A DNA stretch of 64,000 nucleotides, from the NCBI GenBank assembly GCA_943349945.1, contig CALQZS010000001.1, positions 130,803 through 194,802 of the forward strand. The letters are read 5' to 3'. Positions 3,196 through 44,274 of the stretch are shown piece after piece. The notes under the pieces were generated by a model. The model worked only from the letters and a program-made list of their open reading frames with translations, searched no databases and had not been told where the DNA came from. Position 1 is the first letter of the stretch; every line of letters begins with the position of its first letter. The position numbers were made by a program, and so were the translations under genes. The stretch is from Candidatus Nomurabacteria bacterium (lineage in GTDB: Bacteria; Patescibacteriota; Minisyncoccia; Phycocordibacterales; SBAW01).

Positions 3196-3723
3196 TTAGC
3201 AGCCAGCAACTACGCTGCCGCCAGTGCCGCTACTGACATGTACTGAGCCAAAAGTTGCTGCAGTACCTCCGTAAGTAACGTTACCTGCCTCTAGCACTGT
3301 GCAGATTTTGTAGTTTTGGGTTGTTGCACCTGCTGCAGGCGCTGCACCTACCGCTGTGTCTGTACCTATAACGTACTGACATGCTGCTGATGCAACTGCG
3401 CTACTTGCCGCTGGTGCACATGCTGTACCTGCTGTACCTACTGTTGGGTCTCCATATGCAGAGAAGCTTACAGGACTTGGGCCAGTACAGGTGTTTGCTT
3501 TTGCACTTGCGCCTGTGCAGGTTGCCAAGGCAACTGCGGGGTCAGTGTCGGCAAGCTGTATTGCCTTTGCCATTTCTTTAAGTGACGAGACGCGTTCTGC
3601 ATCACGTGCCTTGCCGCGAGCACTATTAAGAGAAACCAGCACAATAGATGCCAAGATACCGATGATGGCGATAACCACCAAGAGTTCTATAAGGGTGAAA
3701 CCTTTCGTAAACGTTTTGCGCAT
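3196..3723 (-). CDS. type IV pilin (major pilin candidate, Ala/Gly/Thr-rich C-terminal domain with Cys pairs)
   Basis: [28 protein letters not shown].... Confidence 0.8.
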
Positions 3724-5907: not shown

Positions 5908-6975
5908 TTATAACAGCCGCTCAAGGGTCTTTGGATTCCAACTAAGGTTGTATGCGCTCTCGACTGTTATCTCGCCTGCACGCACAAGTTCTGCAAGAGA
6001 GCGGTTCATGTCTATCATACCCTCTTCGGCACCGGTCTCTATCACCGTCTGGAGTTCGTGCGTGCGCTTTTCTCGGATAAGGTTGGCGACTGCGTTGTTG
6101 TTTATAAGCAGCTCGCACGCAGGCACCAGCCCGCCAGAAATGCGCGGCACCAAACGCTGCGAAAAGATACCTGCCAACGACCCCGCCAGCTGGATACGAA
6201 TTTGGTCTTGTTGCCCCGCGGGGAACGAGTCGATGATGCGGTCGATGGTTTGTGCTGCGTTGTTGGTGTGGAGTGTTGAAAACACCAAGTGCCCCGTCTC
6301 GGCGGCAGTTACGGCTGTGGCCATGGTCTCGGGCGTGCGCATCTCACCTATCATCAACACGTTTGCATCCTGACGAAACACCGAGCGCAGCGCCGAGTCA
6401 AAGTCGGCCGTGTCCACACGAACCTCGCGCTGGTCTATGAGTGACTTTTTATTTTCGAACAAGTATTCAATAGGGTCTTCTATGGTGACAATATGCTCGG
6501 TACGTTCGGTGTTTATCTTCTCGAGCAATGCAGCAAGTGTCGTAGTTTTACCCATACCCACCGGCCCCACCACCAAAAAGAACCCCTGTTTGCGTGACGC
6601 AAACGTCTCCAAAATTGGAGGCAACCCAAGCTCGCTGAGCGAGCGTATTACCTTGGGGATAAGACGCAGCGCCACGGCGACGTGCCCGCGCTCGACAAAC
6701 CCGTTGCCACGGAAGCGCGTTTTTTCTTGGTGCGAGTAGGAAAAGTCTATTTCTTGTGTCTCTAAAAAGCGTTTTTTGTGCTCGGGGCTCAACATCTCCG
6801 ATAACAGGCCGATAATTTCGTCGTTCGTTAAGACCGACTCAGACAAAATAGGTGTCAGCGCACCCGACACACGTATGATGGGTTGTGCACCCACAGACAA
6901 GTGCAAGTCCGAAGCACCTTGCGCGACCAACAAATCAACCAACTCTGCTACTTTCTTTTTAAAATCAGTTATCAT
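5908..6975 (-). CDS. pilT: twitching motility ATPase PilT
   Basis: 355 aa with Walker A GPVGMGKTTT in a PilT-like AAA+ secretion ATPase. Confidence 0.9.
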   Translation of the reverse strand: MITDFKKKVAELVDLLVAQGASDLHLSVGAQPIIRVSGALTPILSESVLTNDEIIGLLSEMLSPEHKKRFLETQEIDFSYSHQEKTRFRGNGFVERGHVAVALRLIPKVIRSLSELGLPPILETFASRKQGFFLVVGPVGMGKTTTLAALLEKINTERTEHIVTIEDPIEYLFENKKSLIDQREVRVDTADFDSALRSVFRQDANVLMIGEMRTPETMATAVTAAETGHLVFSTLHTNNAAQTIDRIIDSFPAGQQDQIRIQLAGSLAGIFSQRLVPRISGGLVPACELLINNNAVANLIREKRTHELQTVIETGAEEGMIDMNRSLAELVRAGEITVESAYNLSWNPKTLERLL

Positions 6976-8846
6976 ACTTGGACTTCTTTTACATTTTCAT
7001 CAGGGATATCTTCTTCTCTTAGTGCTTCTGGCTTGGCGACAGGTTGTTCCAGTGGCGGAGCTTCATCTGCCAAGTCGTACTCGCCGCCGAGTGTGTTCAC
7101 TTCTTCAAACGGAATAACCCCTTTGGCTGATTTTATAATAGCATCTTCTTTCATTGTAAACATGCCACTTTTGCGCACTGTTGCGAACATCTCTTCTTCG
7201 GGTTTGTTGGCAAGTATGGCACGCTCAAGTTCTGGATTCATCTCAAATGCCTCAAACACCGCAATACGGCCCTTGGTACCCGTTGGGCAGTCGGCTGTAG
7301 GGTTTAGGCGATACACTTCGTCTAGTGGAGGAATATTTTTTTCGTATGCAGGAGGTAAGTCGGCAAACTCTTTTTTAAACATCTCTTGCATACTGGCATC
7401 GACCTTCATCTTTTTGCCACCGCCCGGGCACAAGGTGCGCACCAAACGCTGCGCCATGCCCAAAATAAGCACCGGAGGTATAAGGTAGGGCTCGATACCC
7501 ATGTCGAGCAAGCGAGGCACAATACCCACAGCGTTGTTGGTGTGGATGGTAGACAACACAAGGTGGCCGGTGAGCGCGGCTTGCACAGCCAAGTCTGCTG
7601 TCTCACTGTCGCGGATCTCGCCGACCATGATGATGTTTGGGTCTTGGCGGAGTGTAGTGCGGAGCCCTGTGGCAAACGTGTAGCCAATTTCGGGCCGCAC
7701 CTGACTTTGCGACACGCCGGGTATGGTGTATTCCACCGGGTCTTCAAGCGACAGCACGTTCTGCCTTTCTCGGTCTATCTCGTTCAAAATCGCATAGAGT
7801 GTGGTGGATTTACCCGAACCGGTTGGCCCCGACACCAGCACGAGCCCGTAGGGTTTTTTAATTGCTGCGCGTATAAGCGCCAAGTCGCGGTCAGAAAACC
7901 CAAGACTGTCCAACCGCAGGTCCTTTGCGGCCGAACCCAAAATACGCATCACCACCTTTTCGCCATAGTACGTGGGGAATGTGGATACACGGAAGTCTAC
8001 TTTGTTGCCGCCCACCCGGGCAGAAAAGCGGCCGTCTTGCGGTTTGCGTTTTTCGTCGAGTCGCATGTTGGAAAGCACCTTAATACGTGCCACCACCGAG
8101 CTGTGTACCTTGGACGGCAAGGTGATGTTGACTATGAGCACACCGTCGATACGAAACCGCACCCGTGTTTGGTCGACCATAGGCTCAATGTGGATGTCGG
8201 ACGCGCGCTGCTCGGCAGCATGGCGCAGCACCGTAGCCACAATCTTGGTTACCGGTGCGTCTTCGGTAATAGCGGCAGCTTCGGTGTCGGTTATCTGGTC
8301 TTCTTCGACCGATATGTTGCGTTTGTCATTCTTTCCCAGCTTCTTAGCGTCTACTCCTATTTCTGTCTCTAGCTCGCTCAGTGCTTTGCCCACTTCGCCC
8401 GAGAGACCTTTGTACTGTGTGAGCAGTTTTTCGAAGTCGGTTTCGTTTATCAAAAAAACTTTGTACGGCATGCCCACCTTGGCCGAAATAAAAGACAAGG
8501 CGTCCCGCGCCTCCAAGTTGTCTGGGTCGGTGACCCCAACCTCAAGCACGCCGTCGGCGAGCCCCAAAGGGGCGAGCCTGTAGTGCCGCGCCGACTCCTC
8601 GGGTATGTAGCCCAAAATATCAAACGGCACCGACCTGTCGCCCAACTCGCGCGTCGGCACACCAAAATAGTCTCCCTTGGCTTTAAGCAGCGCCGCCGGG
8701 GTAATACCCGCAGTTTCAAGCGCCAACTCTGTCTTAGCCGGAGAGTCCCCTGCCGCGGTTTTTGACTTACTTAAAGTGGCGCGCAGCTCGGTAGCCCGAG
8801 CTTTGTCCACGACGCCGCCTTCTTCCAAAACAGTTACCAGATCCAT
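6972..8846 (-). CDS. pilB: type IV pilus assembly ATPase PilB (GspE family)
   Basis: 624 aa with Walker A GPTGSGKSTTL and an N-terminal GspE_N-like region. It overlaps pilT by 4 nt. Confidence 0.9.
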   Translation of the reverse strand: MDLVTVLEEGGVVDKARATELRATLSKSKTAAGDSPAKTELALETAGITPAALLKAKGDYFGVPTRELGDRSVPFDILGYIPEESARHYRLAPLGLADGVLEVGVTDPDNLEARDALSFISAKVGMPYKVFLINETDFEKLLTQYKGLSGEVGKALSELETEIGVDAKKLGKNDKRNISVEEDQITDTEAAAITEDAPVTKIVATVLRHAAEQRASDIHIEPMVDQTRVRFRIDGVLIVNITLPSKVHSSVVARIKVLSNMRLDEKRKPQDGRFSARVGGNKVDFRVSTFPTYYGEKVVMRILGSAAKDLRLDSLGFSDRDLALIRAAIKKPYGLVLVSGPTGSGKSTTLYAILNEIDRERQNVLSLEDPVEYTIPGVSQSQVRPEIGYTFATGLRTTLRQDPNIIMVGEIRDSETADLAVQAALTGHLVLSTIHTNNAVGIVPRLLDMGIEPYLIPPVLILGMAQRLVRTLCPGGGKKMKVDASMQEMFKKEFADLPPAYEKNIPPLDEVYRLNPTADCPTGTKGRIAVFEAFEMNPELERAILANKPEEEMFATVRKSGMFTMKEDAIIKSAKGVIPFEEVNTLGGEYDLADEAPPLEQPVAKPEALREEDIPDENVKEVQV

Positions 8847-8852
8847 AGGCGG

Positions 8853-9197
8853 CTAGTAGGCGTTAAGTGGCCGTATTGAAGAATTTGTTGGACCAACTGC
8901 CGTGTACGGCAAGAATGGATTTCGACGACCAATAGGCTCTTGCGGGATAACTACACCAAAGTCGCTCAAAGACATAAAGATTGGGTCTCTAAAAATGGCA
9001 TCATTGAGCTCTATAGAGCGCAAGTTCGACAGTGTAACCAGCAGCTCTTGCGTAACCGGTGATGCTCCGGTTACATCTGTCTCGGTCAAAAGCGAGTCTG
9101 TGCTGCTTGCGGCAAATACAAAGTAGTAGAGCAACACCCCAAGCCCCAGCACCGCTGCGCCTGAAAGTAGTTTGTTTTGTTTGATAAAATCAATCAT
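8853..9197 (-). CDS. small membrane protein in the type IV pilus operon (function unknown; PilP-like position)
   Basis: 114 aa with a single N-terminal TM helix, lying between pilO and pilB. Confidence 0.4.
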   Translation of the reverse strand: MIDFIKQNKLLSGAAVLGLGVLLYYFVFAASSTDSLLTETDVTGASPVTQELLVTLSNLRSIELNDAIFRDPIFMSLSDFGVVIPQEPIGRRNPFLPYTAVGPTNSSIRPLNAY

Positions 9198-22627: not shown

Positions 22628-22714
22628 CGGAGAGAGCGAGATTCGAACTCGCGGGCCCAATTAAGGGCCGACAGTTTAGTAAACTGTTGATTTAAACCAC
22701 TCATCCATCTCTCC
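22628..22714 (-). tRNA. type II (long variable arm) tRNA, Ser-like, anticodon apparently ACU
   Basis: Acceptor GGAGAGA/TCTCTCC, T-arm GCGAG-TTCGAAT-CTCGC, variable arm GGCCC-TTAATT-GGGCC, and anticodon stem ACAGT/ACTGT with loop TTACTAA. Confidence 0.7.
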
Positions 22715-22926: not shown

Positions 22927-23011
22927 GGAGACGTGTCAGAGTGGTCGAATGTGCCTCCTTGCTAAGGAGGTAGGGCGCAAGCCCTCGTGGGTTCGAATCC
23001 CACCGTCTCCG
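22927..23011 (+). tRNA. tRNA-Ser (GCU)
   Basis: Acceptor GGAGACG/CGTCTCC, anticodon loop TTGCTAA between CCTCC/GGAGG, long variable arm, and T-arm GTGGG-TTCGAAT-CCCAC. Confidence 0.85.
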
Positions 23012-31104: not shown

Positions 31105-31637
31105 GATTGTGCTTCTGGTTCCATGAGCGTACGGAGCTTTTTGAGCCCGCGGTGTATCCGCACCGATACCACATTTTCGCTCTCTTCTATCGACTCTGCA
31201 ATCTCTTTTGGACTAAAGCCCTCTATATAGCGCAGCGCCAACACCTCGCGGTATGGGTCGGCCAACTTGGCCAGCGCCGCGAGCGCGCGCTTGCCGTCGA
31301 AGCGGTCCATAGCAGCTTCGAGCGCGTTTGTCTCGTCGGCAGGTAAAAGGGACTCCACCGTCTCGCCGCCCTCGCCGCTTTCGACCATCTGTTCGAGCGA
31401 TGTGGTTTTGTGCTTGCGGTACTCGTCGACAATAAGGTTATGTAGCGTGCGGTAAAAGAAGGGACGGTAGTCGTGGATTTCTTCGCCGCGCGAGACATAG
31501 GCCCACGCACGCAGAAAAGTCTCTTGCGTCAAGTCGAGCGCCCGCTCCCTGTCGGAGAGCCTGAGTGTCGCATGCCGGAAAAGCTCGTCGGCATACCGCT
31601 CAAAGGCAGCAGTAAATTGTTTTTCTGTGTCTACCAT
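31101..31637 (-). CDS. ECF-type RNA polymerase sigma factor (sigma-70 family)
   Basis: Region 2 (DLTQETFLRAW) and region 4 (YIEGFSPKEIAESIE...VRIHRGLKKLR) motifs. Confidence 0.85.
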   Translation of the reverse strand: MVDTEKQFTAAFERYADELFRHATLRLSDRERALDLTQETFLRAWAYVSRGEEIHDYRPFFYRTLHNLIVDEYRKHKTTSLEQMVESGEGGETVESLLPADETNALEAAMDRFDGKRALAALAKLADPYREVLALRYIEGFSPKEIAESIEESENVVSVRIHRGLKKLRTLMEPEAQS

Positions 31638-31710
31638 ATATAGAGACGGATGAGAGCCTCTACTCTTTCATCGCCTACCTATTCTACCCTATACAACCCG
31701 TACACTAGAC

Positions 31711-31745
31711 GCAAAAACACCACCCCTAAACAGGGTGGTGTTTTT
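31711..31745. terminator. bidirectional rho-independent terminator (terminates the minus-strand hammerhead-containing transcript)
   Basis: caccacccctaaacagggtggtg flanked by an A-run and a T-run (gcaaaaa / ttttt). Confidence 0.6.
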
Positions 31746-31855
31746 AAACATCCATAGGGCCACGAGCCATGCACAGTGGTTAGAGGAGAGAGTTTTTTGC
31801 TCCGTCTTGGCTAGTGCAATTTGGAGCTTCTCACACAGCGTGACTCATGACCCTA

Positions 31856-31909
31856 TAGAGATTTTTACCTTTTCGTCCTTTTGGACTCATCAGCCCGGGC
31901 ACACACCCG
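31856..31909 (-). ncRNA. hammerhead ribozyme, type III topology
   Basis: Minus-strand RNA: GACUUUC^CUCGGG-UGUGUG-CCCGGG-CUGAUGA-GUCC-AAAA-GGAC-GAA-AAGGU. All core nucleotides are present: C3-A9 CUGAUGA, G12A13A14, A15.1:U16.1, cleavage-site C17, and G10.1:C11.1. Stem I is a 6-bp hairpin, stem II a 4-bp hairpin, and stem III is an open 5-bp helix. Predicted cleavage is between window positions 31903/31902. Confidence 0.7.
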
Positions 31910-32009
31910 AGGAAAGTCGGACGACACGCAGCGTTGTTGCGCCGTGTCGCCCGTTAGCCCCGGACTAGCCGGGGCGGCCGGGGATGATTTTGCGGTAATC
32001 ATCCTGTTG

Positions 32010-32402
32010 TTAGGTGCCGCATATAGCGGCCACGAACTGCTTCGCAAGTTCTTGGCGATTCAGTTCTGACGCCCGATCGTCGCTGGGGACGCACGGGGAC
32101 TTAGTTAACCCGTACGCCAAAGAAGCGTAACTCACCGCCATCGACGGATTGTAACCGCCCCAAAAGCGAGCGGCCTCAGCCGCTGCCAGAACGGCGAACT
32201 TCTTCGCCGCCTGTGAGTCCTCAATGGACACATCGAATGGTCGGTCAGCGTGACCGAAAACCCCAAAAAGGGCCCTTTCGATTTCATAGAGTACCCGCTC
32301 TGAAATCTCTCCACCCACTATCATCCATTGGACGACCTGTGGGTTGGGCATCCACAGCCCAGCGACAACAAGCGCTGCCATTCGCGCATGTACTATTGTC
32401 AT
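32010..32402 (-). CDS. hypothetical protein (130 aa) embedded in the ribozyme/leader locus
   Basis: RBS ACGGAGAG 5 nt before the ATG. Third-position GC is about 59%, comparable to a neighbouring real gene (Maf, about 63%). No recognisable family. Coding status needs confirmation. Confidence 0.45.
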   Translation of the reverse strand: MTIVHARMAALVVAGLWMPNPQVVQWMIVGGEISERVLYEIERALFGVFGHADRPFDVSIEDSQAAKKFAVLAAAEAARFWGGYNPSMAVSYASLAYGLTKSPCVPSDDRASELNRQELAKQFVAAICGT

Positions 32403-32592
32403 TTTACTCTCCGTTTTTTTGAGCGTTGGATTTTGCCAACGCTCGGGTTTAGAACATCAGGGTGCAATTTCTTGCGATCCCTCTTGCCGCACCGAGCATT
32501 AGAGTGCATCCATCTGCACTAGGCAGACAGGCTCATGACTCGGTAAGGCGAAGAGGAACAACAAAGGTGATCTTTCGATCGTTTGTTATTTC

Positions 32593-32634
32593 CCGACGCC
32601 AATATTTGGGTCGGGATCCCGACTTTGCGGGATC
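32593..32634 (-). promoter_or_regulatory. mutually exclusive hairpin set in 5' leader (attenuator/riboswitch-like expression platform)
   Basis: Three overlapping alternative helices: cccgac...gtcggg, gtcgggatcccgac, and gatcccg-acttt-cgggatc. Confidence 0.35.
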
Positions 32635-32773
32635 TATTCGCTATTCTTTTGTCAAAGAATGTCTCTCTTTCGAGAGAAGTCGGATGGCAAAATGGGCCAA
32701 ATATAAAAGATGTGCCTTTTGCCGTCCGGCTTCTCCCTACGACTCTCTCCTCTAAGAGGTAATCGTTAAACCC

Positions 32774-32802
32774 ATTATACCCCCTTATTCCGAGTTTGTC
32801 AA
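32774..32802 (-). promoter_or_regulatory. consensus sigma70 promoter (TTGACA-17-TATAAT) driving leader and 130-aa ORF
   Basis: Minus strand reads cTTGACAaactcggaataagggggTATAATggg, a perfect -35 and -10 with a 17-nt spacer. It lies about 360 nt upstream of the ORF start. Confidence 0.6.
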
Positions 32803-32889
32803 GTAGTTCGAGGCGCTCATAACCAAACAGGCAAAATAGCCCTATACATAAGGCTTTTTAGGCACTCTAGAGCCTGCCTTGCTTTGTAG

Positions 32890-34056
32890 CTACCGCACAG
32901 CCTTTGCAACCGCCTCCATGACCCCTTTGTCGAAGGGCCCAGGGATTATTTTGTCTGCCGTAGGCTTTTTGACCAGCGCAGCCAAGTTGTGGGCGGCAGC
33001 CAACTTCATCTTGTCGGTGATTTTGGTGACCTTGTGGTCGAGCGCTCCGCGGAAGATGCCGGGGAATGCTAGCGAATTGTTGATTTGGTTTGGGAAGTCG
33101 CTCCGCCCTGTGGCCACCACAGCTGCCCCTCCCCGCATAGCATCGCCCGGCATAATTTCGGGAGTCGGGTTGGCAAGCCCAAAAACAATCGCACGCGGTG
33201 CCATCATTTGCACGTGCCGCGCCTGCATCAGCCCCGGGCCAGAAACCCCCACCACAGCGTCCGCCCCCGCAAGCGCATCTTCTAAACCTCCCTGTATCTT
33301 GCGTGGGTTTGTGTGTTTGGCCAGCGCCTGCTTGTGCGGCTCGTTACTATTCACCGTGATGATTCCTTTACTGTCGAGGACGATTACATCTTTAACACCC
33401 GCCAAGAGCAGCAGCTTGGTTACGGCGGTGCCTGCAGCACCCGCGCCAGCCACTACTACTTTTAATTTCTTTAGATCTTTCTTTACCACCTTTGCTGCGT
33501 TAATGAGCGCTGCGAGCACCACAATTGCTGTGCCGTGCTGGTCGTCGTGCATCACGGGGATGTTGAGCGCCGCCTTTACCCTGTCTTCTATCTCAAAACA
33601 ATTGGGCGCAGTAAAGTCTTCGAGGTTGATGCCACCGAATGCGGGCGCAATGCGCACAATAGTCTCGACAATCTCGTCGACGTTTTGTGTATCGAGCACA
33701 ATCGGGAATGCGTCTACGTCTGCAAACGACTTAAACAGCGCAGCCTTACCCTCCATAACCGGCAGCGCACCATAGGGCCCGATGTTGCCCAACCCCAACA
33801 CTGCCGAGCCGTCGGAGATAACCGCGACCATGCGTTTTTTTATTGTGTATTCTTTTGCGAGCGTCTCTTGTTTTTTTGTTGGGTGGAGTTTGCCTTTAGT
33901 GCCCGCGACAAGTGTCGACACCGCCGCCACGCCCGGCGTGTATACCAAACTCAAGTCGTCTCTGTTTGTAACGGGCGCTGCTGCCTGGATGCGAATTTTA
34001 CCCCCGAGTTTTTTGTGTAATGCAATTGCCTTTGCTGCGGTGTCGTTTTTTGCCAT
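32890..34056 (-). CDS. maeB: NAD(P)-dependent malic enzyme
   Basis: Malic enzyme NAD-binding and N-terminal domains (GAGAAGTAV...). Start moved to MAKNDTAAKAIALHKKLGGKI (34054-34056) to remove a 5' overlap with recG. Confidence 0.85.
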   Translation of the reverse strand: MAKNDTAAKAIALHKKLGGKIRIQAAAPVTNRDDLSLVYTPGVAAVSTLVAGTKGKLHPTKKQETLAKEYTIKKRMVAVISDGSAVLGLGNIGPYGALPVMEGKAALFKSFADVDAFPIVLDTQNVDEIVETIVRIAPAFGGINLEDFTAPNCFEIEDRVKAALNIPVMHDDQHGTAIVVLAALINAAKVVKKDLKKLKVVVAGAGAAGTAVTKLLLLAGVKDVIVLDSKGIITVNSNEPHKQALAKHTNPRKIQGGLEDALAGADAVVGVSGPGLMQARHVQMMAPRAIVFGLANPTPEIMPGDAMRGGAAVVATGRSDFPNQINNSLAFPGIFRGALDHKVTKITDKMKLAAAHNLAALVKKPTADKIIPGPFDKGVMEAVAKAVR

Positions 34057-36531: not shown

Positions 36532-36603
36532 TGGGCGCGGCAGGGATTGAACCTGCGACCAGTCGTGTATAAGACGACCGCTCTACCACTGAGCTACGCG
36601 CCC
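36532..36603 (-). tRNA. tRNA-Ile (UAU)
   Basis: Acceptor GGGCGCG/CGCGCCC, D-arm GCTCAGTGGTAGAGC, anticodon stem GTCGT/ACGAC with loop CTTATAC, and T-arm GCAGG-TTCAATC-CCTGC. Confidence 0.75.
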
Positions 36604-41590: not shown

Positions 41591-41656
41591 GGCTAAAACG
41601 ATTACCATGCAATCGTTCGCCCGAACAAATCTTGGCACAAGATTTGTTTTAGGGGG
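41591..41656 (+). repeat. direct repeat copy 2 (duplicated smpB 3' end remnant) abutting ssrA
   Basis: ggctaaaacgattaccatgcaatcgttcgcccgaacaaatcttggcacaagatttgttttaggggg. Confidence 0.5.
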
Positions 41657-42018
41657 ATGCCAGGCCTAGACAATGAAGACGCCTGTTGAATGCGCGCAGT
41701 AGAAGTCTGGACCTTCTTAAAAATCCGGAAACAATAACTGCAAAAAACAGTGTTTCGCCGTATTTCGCGGCGAACGACTTCCAGTTCGCGTTCGCGCGAG
41801 CGTAAGTCGCATCTACCCTTCCTCTCTCTTGCGGGTTGGGATAGGTGTTATATAGCAAGAGTATAGTTGCAAGAGCCGCTCTGACTTGCATCCGAACATA
41901 AGAGCTGCAGGAAGTTATGATTTCGTTTGCTTTGCCCATAACAGCCTAAAGAAACAACAAGCGAACTACACTACGTAGAAGCTTCAGCAGCACTTCATTG
42001 CACGGCGGTTCAATTCCG
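41653..42018 (+). ncRNA. ssrA: tmRNA (ssrA)
   Basis: 5' GGGGAUG pairs with 3' CAUCUCC-A, including a G3:U wobble. T-arm GGCGG-UUCAAUU-CCGCC. The tag ORF GCG GCG AAC GAC UUC CAG UUC GCG UUC GCG CGA GCG UAA encodes (A)ANDFQFAFARA. A terminator follows. Confidence 0.8.
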
Positions 42019-42319
42019 CCCATCTCCACATAAAAATAAAACGCGCCCATAGTTGGGTGCTTTTTATTTTCCCTGTCACCTCTGCCCCACTCGGCGAGTT
42101 GTCATAAGTGTCTAGCAATAAAACAAACACACCATGGAACACTTGAGTTAAGCCGAGGAGGCTGCCACCCCAAGGGGACGCGGCCTCCTCGGCGCACATG
42201 GTGCGTTTTGCACCCCTGTTTTTTGCATATGCACACAGATGGTGGTATGTTCAAAAAACGTACAGCGTTTGTTTGTTACGTACTGCACGTCCTAACTCAA
42301 GACTATTTGGGGAAAGCCG

Positions 42320-44216: not shown

Positions 44217-44274
44217 TTAATCCCGACGTTTCAGTCGGGACCCCGACCAAAGCGTCGGGGAAAGGTCTCCTAAC

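Follow-up and report, generated by a model that had tools for sequence, protein, structure and literature searches.

To our knowledge, the roles of bacterial hammerhead ribozymes are largely unknown, and hardly any RNA biology has been characterised in Patescibacteria. Small RNAs (sRNAs) derived from 3' untranslated regions (UTRs) are structured, end at the terminator of their operon, are cleaved from the parent mRNA and carry a conserved seed of the single-stranded type. Multiple hammerheads flanking variable genes in one polycistronic transcript, often that of a prophage, are a documented pattern in bacteria (Perreault et al. 2011, PMC3088659), and pairing between 5' UTR and 3' UTR has been described for the mRNAs of icaR in Staphylococcus aureus (PMC3868564) and hbs in Bacillus subtilis (PMC5737220). 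Here we describe a hammerhead-containing module at positions 31,711 to 32,802 of a 64,000-nucleotide (nt) stretch of DNA (the window) from a Candidatus Nomurabacteria bacterium (NCBI GenBank assembly GCA_943349945.1, contig CALQZS010000001.1, positions 130,803 to 194,802 of the forward strand). On balance, we think it somewhat probable that this module represents a one-gene form of a "chassis" for transcription units in Patescibacteria, in which the cargo genes are exchangeable and the RNA at the 3' end is complementary to the leader.

The unit and its two ends

On the minus strand, the module occupies a gap of 1.25 kb that is bounded by a malic-enzyme gene (34221-32890) and a gene pair for an extracytoplasmic function (ECF) sigma factor and a DUF5667 anti-sigma factor (31637-29986). 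Its order on that strand is promoter, leader, an open reading frame (ORF) of 130 amino acids (aa; ORF130), three hairpins, hammerhead, 3' RNA (~120 nt) and terminator. All sequence features named in a preliminary description of this DNA are present on the minus strand, at or near the positions where it placed them, and its view of the locus as a promoter-to-terminator module with a genuine hammerhead is supported; it overlooked the two most informative features, i.e. the 3' RNA and the 14-nt complementarity of this RNA to the 5' end of the leader. In window coordinates, the features are:

32774-32802, minus strand: sigma-70-type promoter TTGACA-17-TATAAT, perfect as first described (12/12 consensus); transcription start site inferred near 32767
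32403-32767, minus strand: structured 5' leader, ~365 nt; minimum free energy -141 kcal/mol, z = -8.3 versus shuffles
32742-32755, minus strand: purine-rich motif UUAGAGGAGAGAGU at about +12 to +25, within the local hairpin P1 (32766-32739); reverse complement of 31793-31780
32672-32737, minus strand: leader hairpin P2, a long imperfect stem of ~25 bp in the RNAalifold consensus; every pair kept, with one-sided changes only
32650-32660, minus strand: U-rich boxA-like motif AUUCUUUGACA, a lead only; invariant in four close loci
32591-32632, minus strand: palindrome-rich insertion found in the window only; missing from the otherwise aligned leaders of L001, L002 and L004
32471-32565, minus strand: leader P4 domain, a long irregular hairpin UUGUUCCUCUUCGCC...GGCAAGAGGGAUCGCAA; 6/28 predicted pairs compensatory
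32421-32444, minus strand: hairpin GAGCGUUGG-CAAAAU-CCAACGCUC, followed by an A-run and the GGAGAG ribosome-binding site (RBS) of the ORF; kept in 4/4 ORF130 loci
32010-32402, minus strand: ORF130, a protein-coding ORFan of 130 aa and the cargo gene of this copy, with the GGAGAG RBS upstream; identified as coding by homologues and by the ratio of nonsynonymous to synonymous substitution rates (dN/dS)
31922-32004, minus strand: three stable hairpins (32004-31982, 31975-31957 and 31949-31922) between stop codon and hammerhead; z = -4.7
31865-31919, minus strand: type III hammerhead ribozyme; Rfam Hammerhead_3 (RF00008), 31 bits, E = 3e-4 for the region
31745-31866, minus strand: conserved structured 3' RNA, whose parts are a long closing helix, the sequence GUGUGAGA at 31836-31829, a hairpin that varies and a core rich in C and U; recognised by covariation and a covariance model
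31780-31793, minus strand: invariant CU-rich core ACUCUCUCCUCUAA, complementary to 32755-32742
31713-31745, minus strand: intrinsic terminator AAAAACACCACCC-UGUUUA-GGGGUGGUGUUUUU; -26.7 kcal/mol, z = -6.7

The promoter is the sole site of its kind within 4 kb, where shuffles average 2.4 weaker sites, and a -35 element TTGACA with a -10 element TATAAT, TATACT or TAATAT occupies the same relative position in L001, L002, L004, L008, L010 and L017 (L numbers denote the related loci compared here). In L020, two tandem perfect TTGACA-17-TATAAT promoters, 81 bp apart, lie at 3277-3386 (oriented) in one chassis unit. The leader had been called unusually long and GC-rich: at 365 nt it is long, and strongly structured, but with 47.4% GC versus 50.8% in the window it is not GC-rich. 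The conserved chassis leader corresponds to the segment 32802-32473, i.e. the promoter and ~300 nt. It is conserved in L001, L002 and L004 upstream of differing first genes and, before unrelated ORFans, can still be recognised in two loci at greater distance, L008 ("Parcubacteria group bacterium 21-54-25") and L010; judged by this distribution, the leader is a conserved platform and not a private UTR. The P2-homologous hairpin of L008 has an altered sequence, P4 was compared in six sequences (window, L001, L002, L004, L008 and L010), and the hairpin preceding the RBS reads GAGUGUUGG/CCAACACUC in L004, a compensatory change.

At the opposite end of the unit, the segment 31866-31745 is 91-97% identical among close loci, where the flanking genes are 83-87% identical in DNA. 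Exact-pattern scans identified copies of this 3' element in five further genome representatives, all of them metagenome-assembled genomes of Patescibacteria, and nine metagenome contigs contain it as well; viral contigs, scanned twice by pattern, yielded no copy, and the exact-pattern matches in L012 and L021, which have neither the structure nor a model match, were discarded as chance. The element measures 120-175 nt across copies, with a longer metagenomic version of ~170 nt. A covariance model built from distant metagenomic copies only recovers the window element (33.5 bits, E = 4e-6) and all short copies; a covariance-model search detected no second 3' element in the window. The structure of the element is demonstrated by covariation: in an alignment of 14 sequences, with the caveat that it was fitted to the model, 90% of cells pair and 32/57 pairs are compensatory, all five measures beat 500/500 shuffles, and slid controls reach at most 13 pairs. 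Its invariant parts are GUGUGAGA and AAACUCUCUCCUCUAA(C/G)CAC, and the CU core is flanked by internal purine partners, namely the GAGA of GUGUGAGA and an upstream GGAG, so that alternative pairing registers are possible. Rfam contains no family for the element.

The 3' element is always found at the end of a same-strand gene array with a terminator next to it, whatever lies downstream (a sigma factor, an ABC transporter, a MarR-like gene, a convergent malic-enzyme gene or FtsZ); because this position is constant, the element belongs to the upstream unit. The terminator in the window, which had been correctly recognised before, is conserved in L001, L004, L011 and L025, and different terminators follow the element in L010, L013, L015 and L022. 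Being symmetrical, it is possibly bidirectional.

The two ends of the unit match each other. Over 14 nt, UUAGAGGAGAGAGU of the leader (32755-32742) and the CU core ACUCUCUCCUCUAA (31793-31780) are exact reverse complements of each other, with 2 matches in the window against 0.01 expected. The complement in the related loci is as follows:

L001, L002, L003, L004, L006, L010: 14/14, spacing 0.9-3.3 kb
L008: 13/14
L020: 11 contiguous nt
L017: 9 nt

Wherever both ends of a locus can be seen, they retain a complement of at least 9 nt, its two copies being 0.9-4 kb apart, and the 5' copy always lies shortly behind the promoter. L024 and L025, which were reached via distant ORF130 homologues, have the same 14-mer. 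These sequences give good grounds for a predicted pairing of the leader with the 3' RNA. The leader, the 3' element and their complementarity appear to be undescribed, with no Rfam family and no literature on them in the library searched.

The genes between these ends differ. The contigs on which ORF130 homologues were found belong to close relatives (83-87% DNA identity in the flanking genes) and represent the same chromosomal site. In the window and in L001, ORF130 directly follows the leader; in L002 and L004, genes of 142/149, 87 and 121 aa stand behind the leader and ORF130 comes after them. Units in related genomes carry one to five unrelated cargo genes, blastp detected no similarity between cargo proteins of different lineages, and most cargo genes are ORFans without Pfam, PADLOC or PHROGs matches. 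Cargo in other lineages includes a GNAT protein as well as bpMoxR and von Willebrand factor A (vWA) proteins with a large uncharacterised partner. In L027-L030, which were fetched via homologues of this large partner, the same gene set stands beside Csx3-like proteins, suggesting conflict-type systems. Among these four loci a 3' element is found only in L029, as a variant at 8726-8955 with a changed CU motif. The operon as such is conserved in Patescibacteria (L027-L030, e.g. L029:2513-8593) and encodes a Csx3-like protein, a bpMoxR AAA+ protein, a vWA protein and an uncharacterised protein of 530-780 aa (76 homologues); the Csx3-like protein is absent from the called genes of L030.

The cargo gene of the window bears on the two alternatives set out in the preliminary description, i.e. 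a small-protein gene with a self-processing 3' UTR or a structured noncoding RNA (ncRNA) of ~1.07 kb in which the ORF is fortuitous. As stated there, ORF130 has an RBS and no recognisable family: Pfam, PADLOC and PHROGs gave no match for it, nor for the small cargo proteins scanned. Three further ORF130 clusters, at 76, 69 and 61% identity, emerged when 5.8 billion proteins were searched, and an exhaustive hidden Markov model search of 1.84 billion representatives found only 3 related clusters; the AlphaFold model is all-helical but unreliable (predicted local distance difference test score 51). Codon alignments display an excess of changes at third positions (e.g. 32/29/65), a dN/dS of 0.11-0.61 and indels that are all in frame; the ORF evolves like a protein. 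By these measures ORF130 is a real protein-coding gene under purifying selection. Because of the homologues, the third-position excess, the dN/dS and the in-frame indels, the idea of a fortuitous ORF in a large ncRNA is refuted, and in relatives other genes stand between the same leader and 3' RNA; the small-protein gene with a self-processing 3' UTR is the alternative that is supported.

Rfam was scanned at gathering thresholds over the whole window and at E <= 10 over 31400-33000 on both strands, and the sub-threshold hammerhead was the only match in the module; riboswitch, RNase P, ROOL, GOLLD, HEARO, raiA and group I/II intron models all remained unmatched at E <= 10. The large ornate ncRNAs (ROOL, GOLLD, HEARO, raiA and OLE), the first four of which had been named as candidates, are ruled out by the missing family-model matches together with the selection on the internal ORF as a protein. 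The plus-strand string GAGGAAAGUCGGAC, thought to be reminiscent of the P4 region of RNase P, turned out to be the reverse complement of the hammerhead 5' flank and a stem III strand; neither strand matches RNase P at E <= 10, and the same library scores a true class A RNase P RNA at 131 bits in a related contig (L019:5165-5556, ~1.5 kb downstream of a 3' element), which served as the positive control.

The mutually exclusive helices reported at 32593-32634 are present (32632-32591, z = -3.5). The attenuator or riboswitch logic attributed to them did not hold: the insertion that contains them is confined to this window, and therefore they cannot be a conserved regulatory switch. A riboswitch or attenuator at this place was rejected on the grounds that orthologous leaders (L001, L002 and L004) lack the helices, that no Rfam riboswitch matches at E <= 10 and that the downstream genes vary by genome. 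A perfect palindrome GTCGGGATCCCGAC lies at 32610-32623 inside the insertion; a one-mismatch copy at 44234-44247, 11.6 kb off, may mark a short dispersed palindromic repeat. In L008, L010 and L020, the purine motif of the leader is closely followed by a hairpin that resembles an intrinsic terminator, and given these hairpins attenuation of some form may occur in chassis leaders. In total, the strong structure of the whole module would be in line with an ornate ncRNA of ~1.07 kb or with a riboswitch/attenuator leader at 32593-32634, but the ORF is protein-like and is replaced or joined by other genes in relatives, the switch helices are specific to the window, Rfam matches are missing and the cargo is unrelated to any metabolic pathway; we regard both possibilities as extremely unlikely.

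The hammerhead and other separators

All three strong hairpins reported behind the ORF are present, and the second and third of them are also conserved in L001, L002 and L024. We infer that they protect the 3' end of the cleaved mRNA.

The hammerhead that follows has an exact core. CUGAUGA and GAAA are unchanged in the window and in 8/8 aligned copies (C3 U4 G5 A6 N7 G8 A9...G12 A13 A14), and the pairs adjacent to the core (1.1-2.1 C-G, 10.1-11.1 G-C and 15.1-16.1 A-U) agree with those specified in PMC3088659. In the window, stem I is CUCGGG-UGUGUG-CCCGGG, stem II GUCC-AAAA-GGAC and stem III ACUUU/AAGGU; with loops closing stems I and II and an open stem III, the ribozyme has type III topology. 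The nucleotide H17 is never G: it is C in the window, L001, L002, L008, L009 and the first L020 copy (L020a), and A in L020b and L023. Cleavage is predicted between 31912 (C17) and 31911. Covariation demonstrates the structure: in an alignment of eight sequences (window, L001, L002, L008, L009, two copies of L020 and L023), 100% of 132 cells pair and 10/19 pairs are compensatory, with all three stems covarying; 0/500 shuffles are as good and slid controls collapse. Hammerhead_3 scores of the relatives are 35.4-45.5 bits, and E-values across copies range from 3e-4 to 9e-7. Homologous copies occur in L001, L002, L009 and L024, with a hairpin inserted in stem II, and hammerheads with different stems in L008, L020 (two copies) and L023. 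The L029 and L030 operons also have type III hammerheads between their cistrons (at ~6900-6965 and ~1640-1695, respectively), and loop 1 of these is again UGUGUG-like. Core, topology and covariation together indicate that the hammerhead is a genuine type III ribozyme; its lineage is new, within a class and a kind of context that have been described before. We found no literature on hammerheads together with Patescibacteria or Parcubacteria, and publications that combine "candidate phyla radiation" with "ribozyme" appear, by their titles and abstracts, to be unrelated.

Two kinds of separators lie between cistrons, either hammerheads (L020, L023, L029 and L030) or a conserved two-hairpin unit of the form ...GUCCCUUUUAAG-[stem]-UUUAAAAGGGG (L002, L004, L010 and L025). 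Directly before the 3' element, a hammerhead is found in the window, L001, L002, L008, L009 and L024, and a two-hairpin unit in L004 and L025. The same positions are thus taken by one or the other, and the hammerhead is therefore an exchangeable processing module that is not obligatory. The two-hairpin unit consists of a variable GC hairpin followed by CCCUUUUAAG, a covarying upper stem with a variable insert, and UUUAAAAGGGG; it had no Rfam match in L002 and L004, the two loci scanned, and may be a processing or protein-binding site. Its copies are located at:

L002: 3578-3655
L004: 3893-3932, 4430-4477 and 5074-5131
L010: 3577-3616
L025: 60-99 and 606-653

The chromosomal site itself is a turnover hotspot: the interval bounded by the malic-enzyme and ECF-sigma genes (L001:3032-3563, L002:2351-3500 and L004:1239-4969) includes several ORFans along with a ParE-like toxin pair and genes for a zinc-ribbon and a membrane protein, and in L002 the sigma/anti-sigma pair itself is missing. 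No recombinase or integrase domain was detected among the called genes within +/-4 kb in L001, L002 and L004. The neighbours of the module in the window are malic enzyme, RecG, the ECF sigma/anti-sigma pair and an ABC transporter. Elsewhere in the window are a transfer-messenger RNA gene (41653-42031, plus strand; Rfam 101.9 bits) and tRNA genes at 36532-36603 (minus), 22628-22714 (minus) and 22927-23011 (plus); the tRNAs near 22.6-23.0 kb have a long variable arm and lie on opposite strands.

Proposed mechanism and competing explanations

Combining these observations, we tentatively put forward a portable RNA "expression chassis" in Patescibacteria in which (i) leader and 3' RNA would recognise each other by 9-14-nt purine/pyrimidine pairing, (ii) hammerheads or two-hairpin units would serve as separators, (iii) ORFan and conflict-system genes would be exchanged rapidly, and (iv) the unit would regulate itself via the 3' RNA released by the ribozyme. 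In the model that we favour as somewhat probable, the consensus promoter would drive a transcript of leader, cargo, stabilising hairpins, type III hammerhead and 3' RNA with terminator. Self-cleavage of the hammerhead between 31912 and 31911 would leave the ORF mRNA with three terminal hairpins and a 2',3'-cyclic phosphate and would free an RNA of ~200 nt that has a 5'-OH and consists of hammerhead, 3' element and terminator. The CU core ACUCUCUCCUCUAA of the freed RNA would pair with the purine-rich, Shine-Dalgarno (SD)-like leader motif (+12 to +25), in cis before cleavage or in trans afterwards, in competition with the internal partners of both motifs. As the outcome, the 3' end and the completion of transcription would be coupled to the fate of the 5' end by feedback on stability, read-through or translation.

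Several observations weigh against this proposal. The 5'-3' pairing lacks covariation, and changes in the 5' motif are uncompensated (1 mismatch in L008, 2 in L020 and 5 in L017); in addition, the 3' motif was fixed by the search patterns used to find the loci. In cofolding, the net gain is -3 to -6 kcal/mol and does not surpass that of shuffled leaders (-4 to -7); the reason is that local structure (P1 in the leader, GAGA/GGAG in the 3' element) already takes up part of both motifs. Divergent units that might display covariation were sought via homologues of ORF130 (L024 and L025) and of the large cargo protein (L027-L030), and in the sole divergent 3' element found, that of L029, the CU motif is altered and a 5' complement could not be detected. 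The window hammerhead, at 31.0 bits, scores below the Rfam gathering score of 48.5, as do its relatives (35.4-45.5); this is due to the short stem III and the loop and stem II lengths, the core not being at fault. Finally, the hammerhead is missing from L004, L010, L011, L013, L015, L022 and L025, and because these units are otherwise complete, cleavage is not essential to the chassis.

Some of these points would be expected if the parts were independent of each other, i.e. if the unit were an ordinary small gene whose 5' UTR is structured, whose 3' end is simply trimmed by the hammerhead and which is followed by an sRNA or stabiliser acting on its own, and if each 14-mer bound something else. 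For example, the leader motif could be an SD-like ribosome- or protein-binding site, and the CU core an anti-SD-like sequence that targets cargo RBSs (GGAGAG can pair with CUCUCC). The uncompensated changes in the 5' motif, the neutral cofolding energetics, the conserved partners of the CU core inside the 3' element and the GGAG-rich RBSs of the cargo genes all agree with this explanation. However, the perfect 14-nt complement is kept in six lineages despite differing leader surroundings, against an expectation of 0.01 matches, the shared minimum UUAGAGGAG exceeds the length of an RBS, and no start codon stands at a usable distance behind the leader motif. We consider independent parts a doubtful explanation, albeit one that deserves attention.

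The exact inverted repeat could also act at the level of DNA, in inversion, cassette exchange or repressor looping, and it does flank a segment with gene turnover among close relatives whose flanking genes are 83-87% identical. In contrast to what such a role would predict, the right copy is the invariant core of a strongly covarying RNA structure, conservation reaches past both repeats (into the promoter on one side and into the closing helix and terminator on the other), which means that the repeats are not the termini of an element, the internal orientation is the same in all loci, and recombinases and integrases are lacking in the surroundings described above. A role of the 14-mers in DNA is therefore very unlikely. 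Terminal repeats of a transposon and an invertible segment were rejected in view of the conservation beyond both repeats and the constant orientation.

A further explanation arises from the boxA-like motif of the leader. BoxA is also known from non-rRNA transcripts, e.g. CRISPR arrays and suhB (PMC7665894, PMC5725501). AUUCUUUGACA matches 9/11 positions of the boxA consensus GYTCTTTAANA (PMC5725501), which is gamma-proteobacterial and may not be that of the host. The motif has the general form (A/G)UUCUUU(A/G)(A/C)(A/C)A, represented by the pair AUUCUUUGACA / GUUCUUUACAA, and GUUCUUU(A/G)CAA occurs directly 3' of both L020 hammerheads (oriented 4649 and 5951) and of the L023 hammerhead (oriented 445); including these post-hammerhead copies, the motifs match 9-10/11 positions of the same gamma-proteobacterial consensus. 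The copy at oriented 6724 in L020 has no hammerhead ahead of it. The post-hammerhead motifs may reload an antitermination complex after self-cleavage.

By analogy with rRNA operons, the leader would then load a boxA/Nus antitermination complex, which would hold the 5' motif near the polymerase until the 3' strand is made, giving rise to an RNase III-type stalk or an end signal; the complex would let the polymerase pass internal hairpins, and the motifs behind the hammerheads would reload it once cleavage has cut the tether. This model accommodates AUUCUUUGACA in the leader and its counterparts right after the L020 and L023 hammerheads, the tandem perfect promoters of L020, the long-range 5'/3' complement that brackets the entire unit and the occurrence of BoxA on non-rRNA transcripts. 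Against it, boxA was scored by a consensus that may not apply to this phylum, a stalk of 9-14 bp is short for RNase III, and the motif is not clearly enriched in sense orientation: there are 11 sense matches versus 7 in 131 kb, and two of the 11 are doubtful, one lying inside an ORF (L017, 8534) and one inside a longer ORF call (the L020 copy at 6724, which we place in a cistron 5' UTR). No rRNA operon was present in the fetched loci scanned with Rfam. We consider an rRNA-operon-like function unlikely.

Significance and comparison with described systems

The self-regulating chassis, if correct, would represent a new class of cis/trans RNA feedback around a self-cleaving ribozyme, and we see a moderate chance of a new regulatory arrangement of this kind. 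The hammerhead has a defined place, after the cargo mRNA and before a conserved RNA complementary to the leader of the unit, leading to the hypothesis that the ribozyme releases a regulatory RNA. In addition, two candidate structured RNA families are added, of which the 3' element covaries strongly, and a hotspot is identified where, in very small genomes, ORFan genes are exchanged behind a single strong promoter. Should the pairing be non-functional, a new hammerhead lineage and two orphan RNA motifs remain, which are useful for annotation.

The organisation of the unit resembles that of integron arrays in that one promoter and a conserved platform precede promoterless, rapidly exchanged small ORFan cassettes with structured repeats between them. 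Unlike in integrons, there is no integrase, and the separators are ribozymes or RNA hairpins conserved at the level of RNA instead of attC sites; an integron was rejected because, within +/-4 kb of the array, the genes called in L001, L002 and L004 encode no recombinase domain. With rRNA-operon leaders and CRISPR boxA (PMC7665894, PMC5725501) the unit shares strong, sometimes tandem promoters, a U-rich boxA-like motif and complements that flank the unit, but compared with rRNA operons its body is protein-coding, the identity of its boxA is only a candidate and its stalk would have just 9-14 bp.

The hammerheads themselves are similar to those described in PMC3088659 in having a canonical core and three stems, in their intergenic location in a same-strand array with inconstant cargo, in the presence of several copies per transcript in some loci (two in L020) and in their presumed role of cutting a long transcript into units. 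They differ in their host, which belongs to the Patescibacteria, and in their chromosomal context without integrase or phage genes nearby. Moreover, all copies here are of type III with a conserved UGUGUG-like loop 1, and the ribozyme is coupled to a dedicated leader and 3' RNA that are not described in that work.

The 3' RNA is reminiscent of 3'-UTR-derived sRNAs in being structured, in its location at the terminator, in its predicted release from the mRNA and in a conserved seed of the single-stranded type. In contrast to such sRNAs, release is predicted to occur by self-cleavage and not by RNase E, and the RNA has its best complementary target within its own unit, namely in the leader.

The closest parallel to the putative pairing is found in icaR and hbs, where a pyrimidine-rich motif in the 3' UTR is also complementary to a purine-rich, SD-like motif in the 5' UTR and the proposed effect is on translation or RNase access. 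As would be expected for an icaR-type interaction, complementarity between the 5' and 3' UTRs is conserved (14 nt in six lineages and 9-13 nt in three more). A 5' partner overlapping the SD sequence, with compensatory or experimental support, is not seen here; the motif lies ~340 nt upstream of the real RBS of the ORF, so that simple occlusion is impossible. The systems also differ in that the 3' partner is embedded in a large covarying RNA domain, that a ribozyme could sever the two ends, and that the predicted pairing is conserved across different cargo genes and not in one gene.

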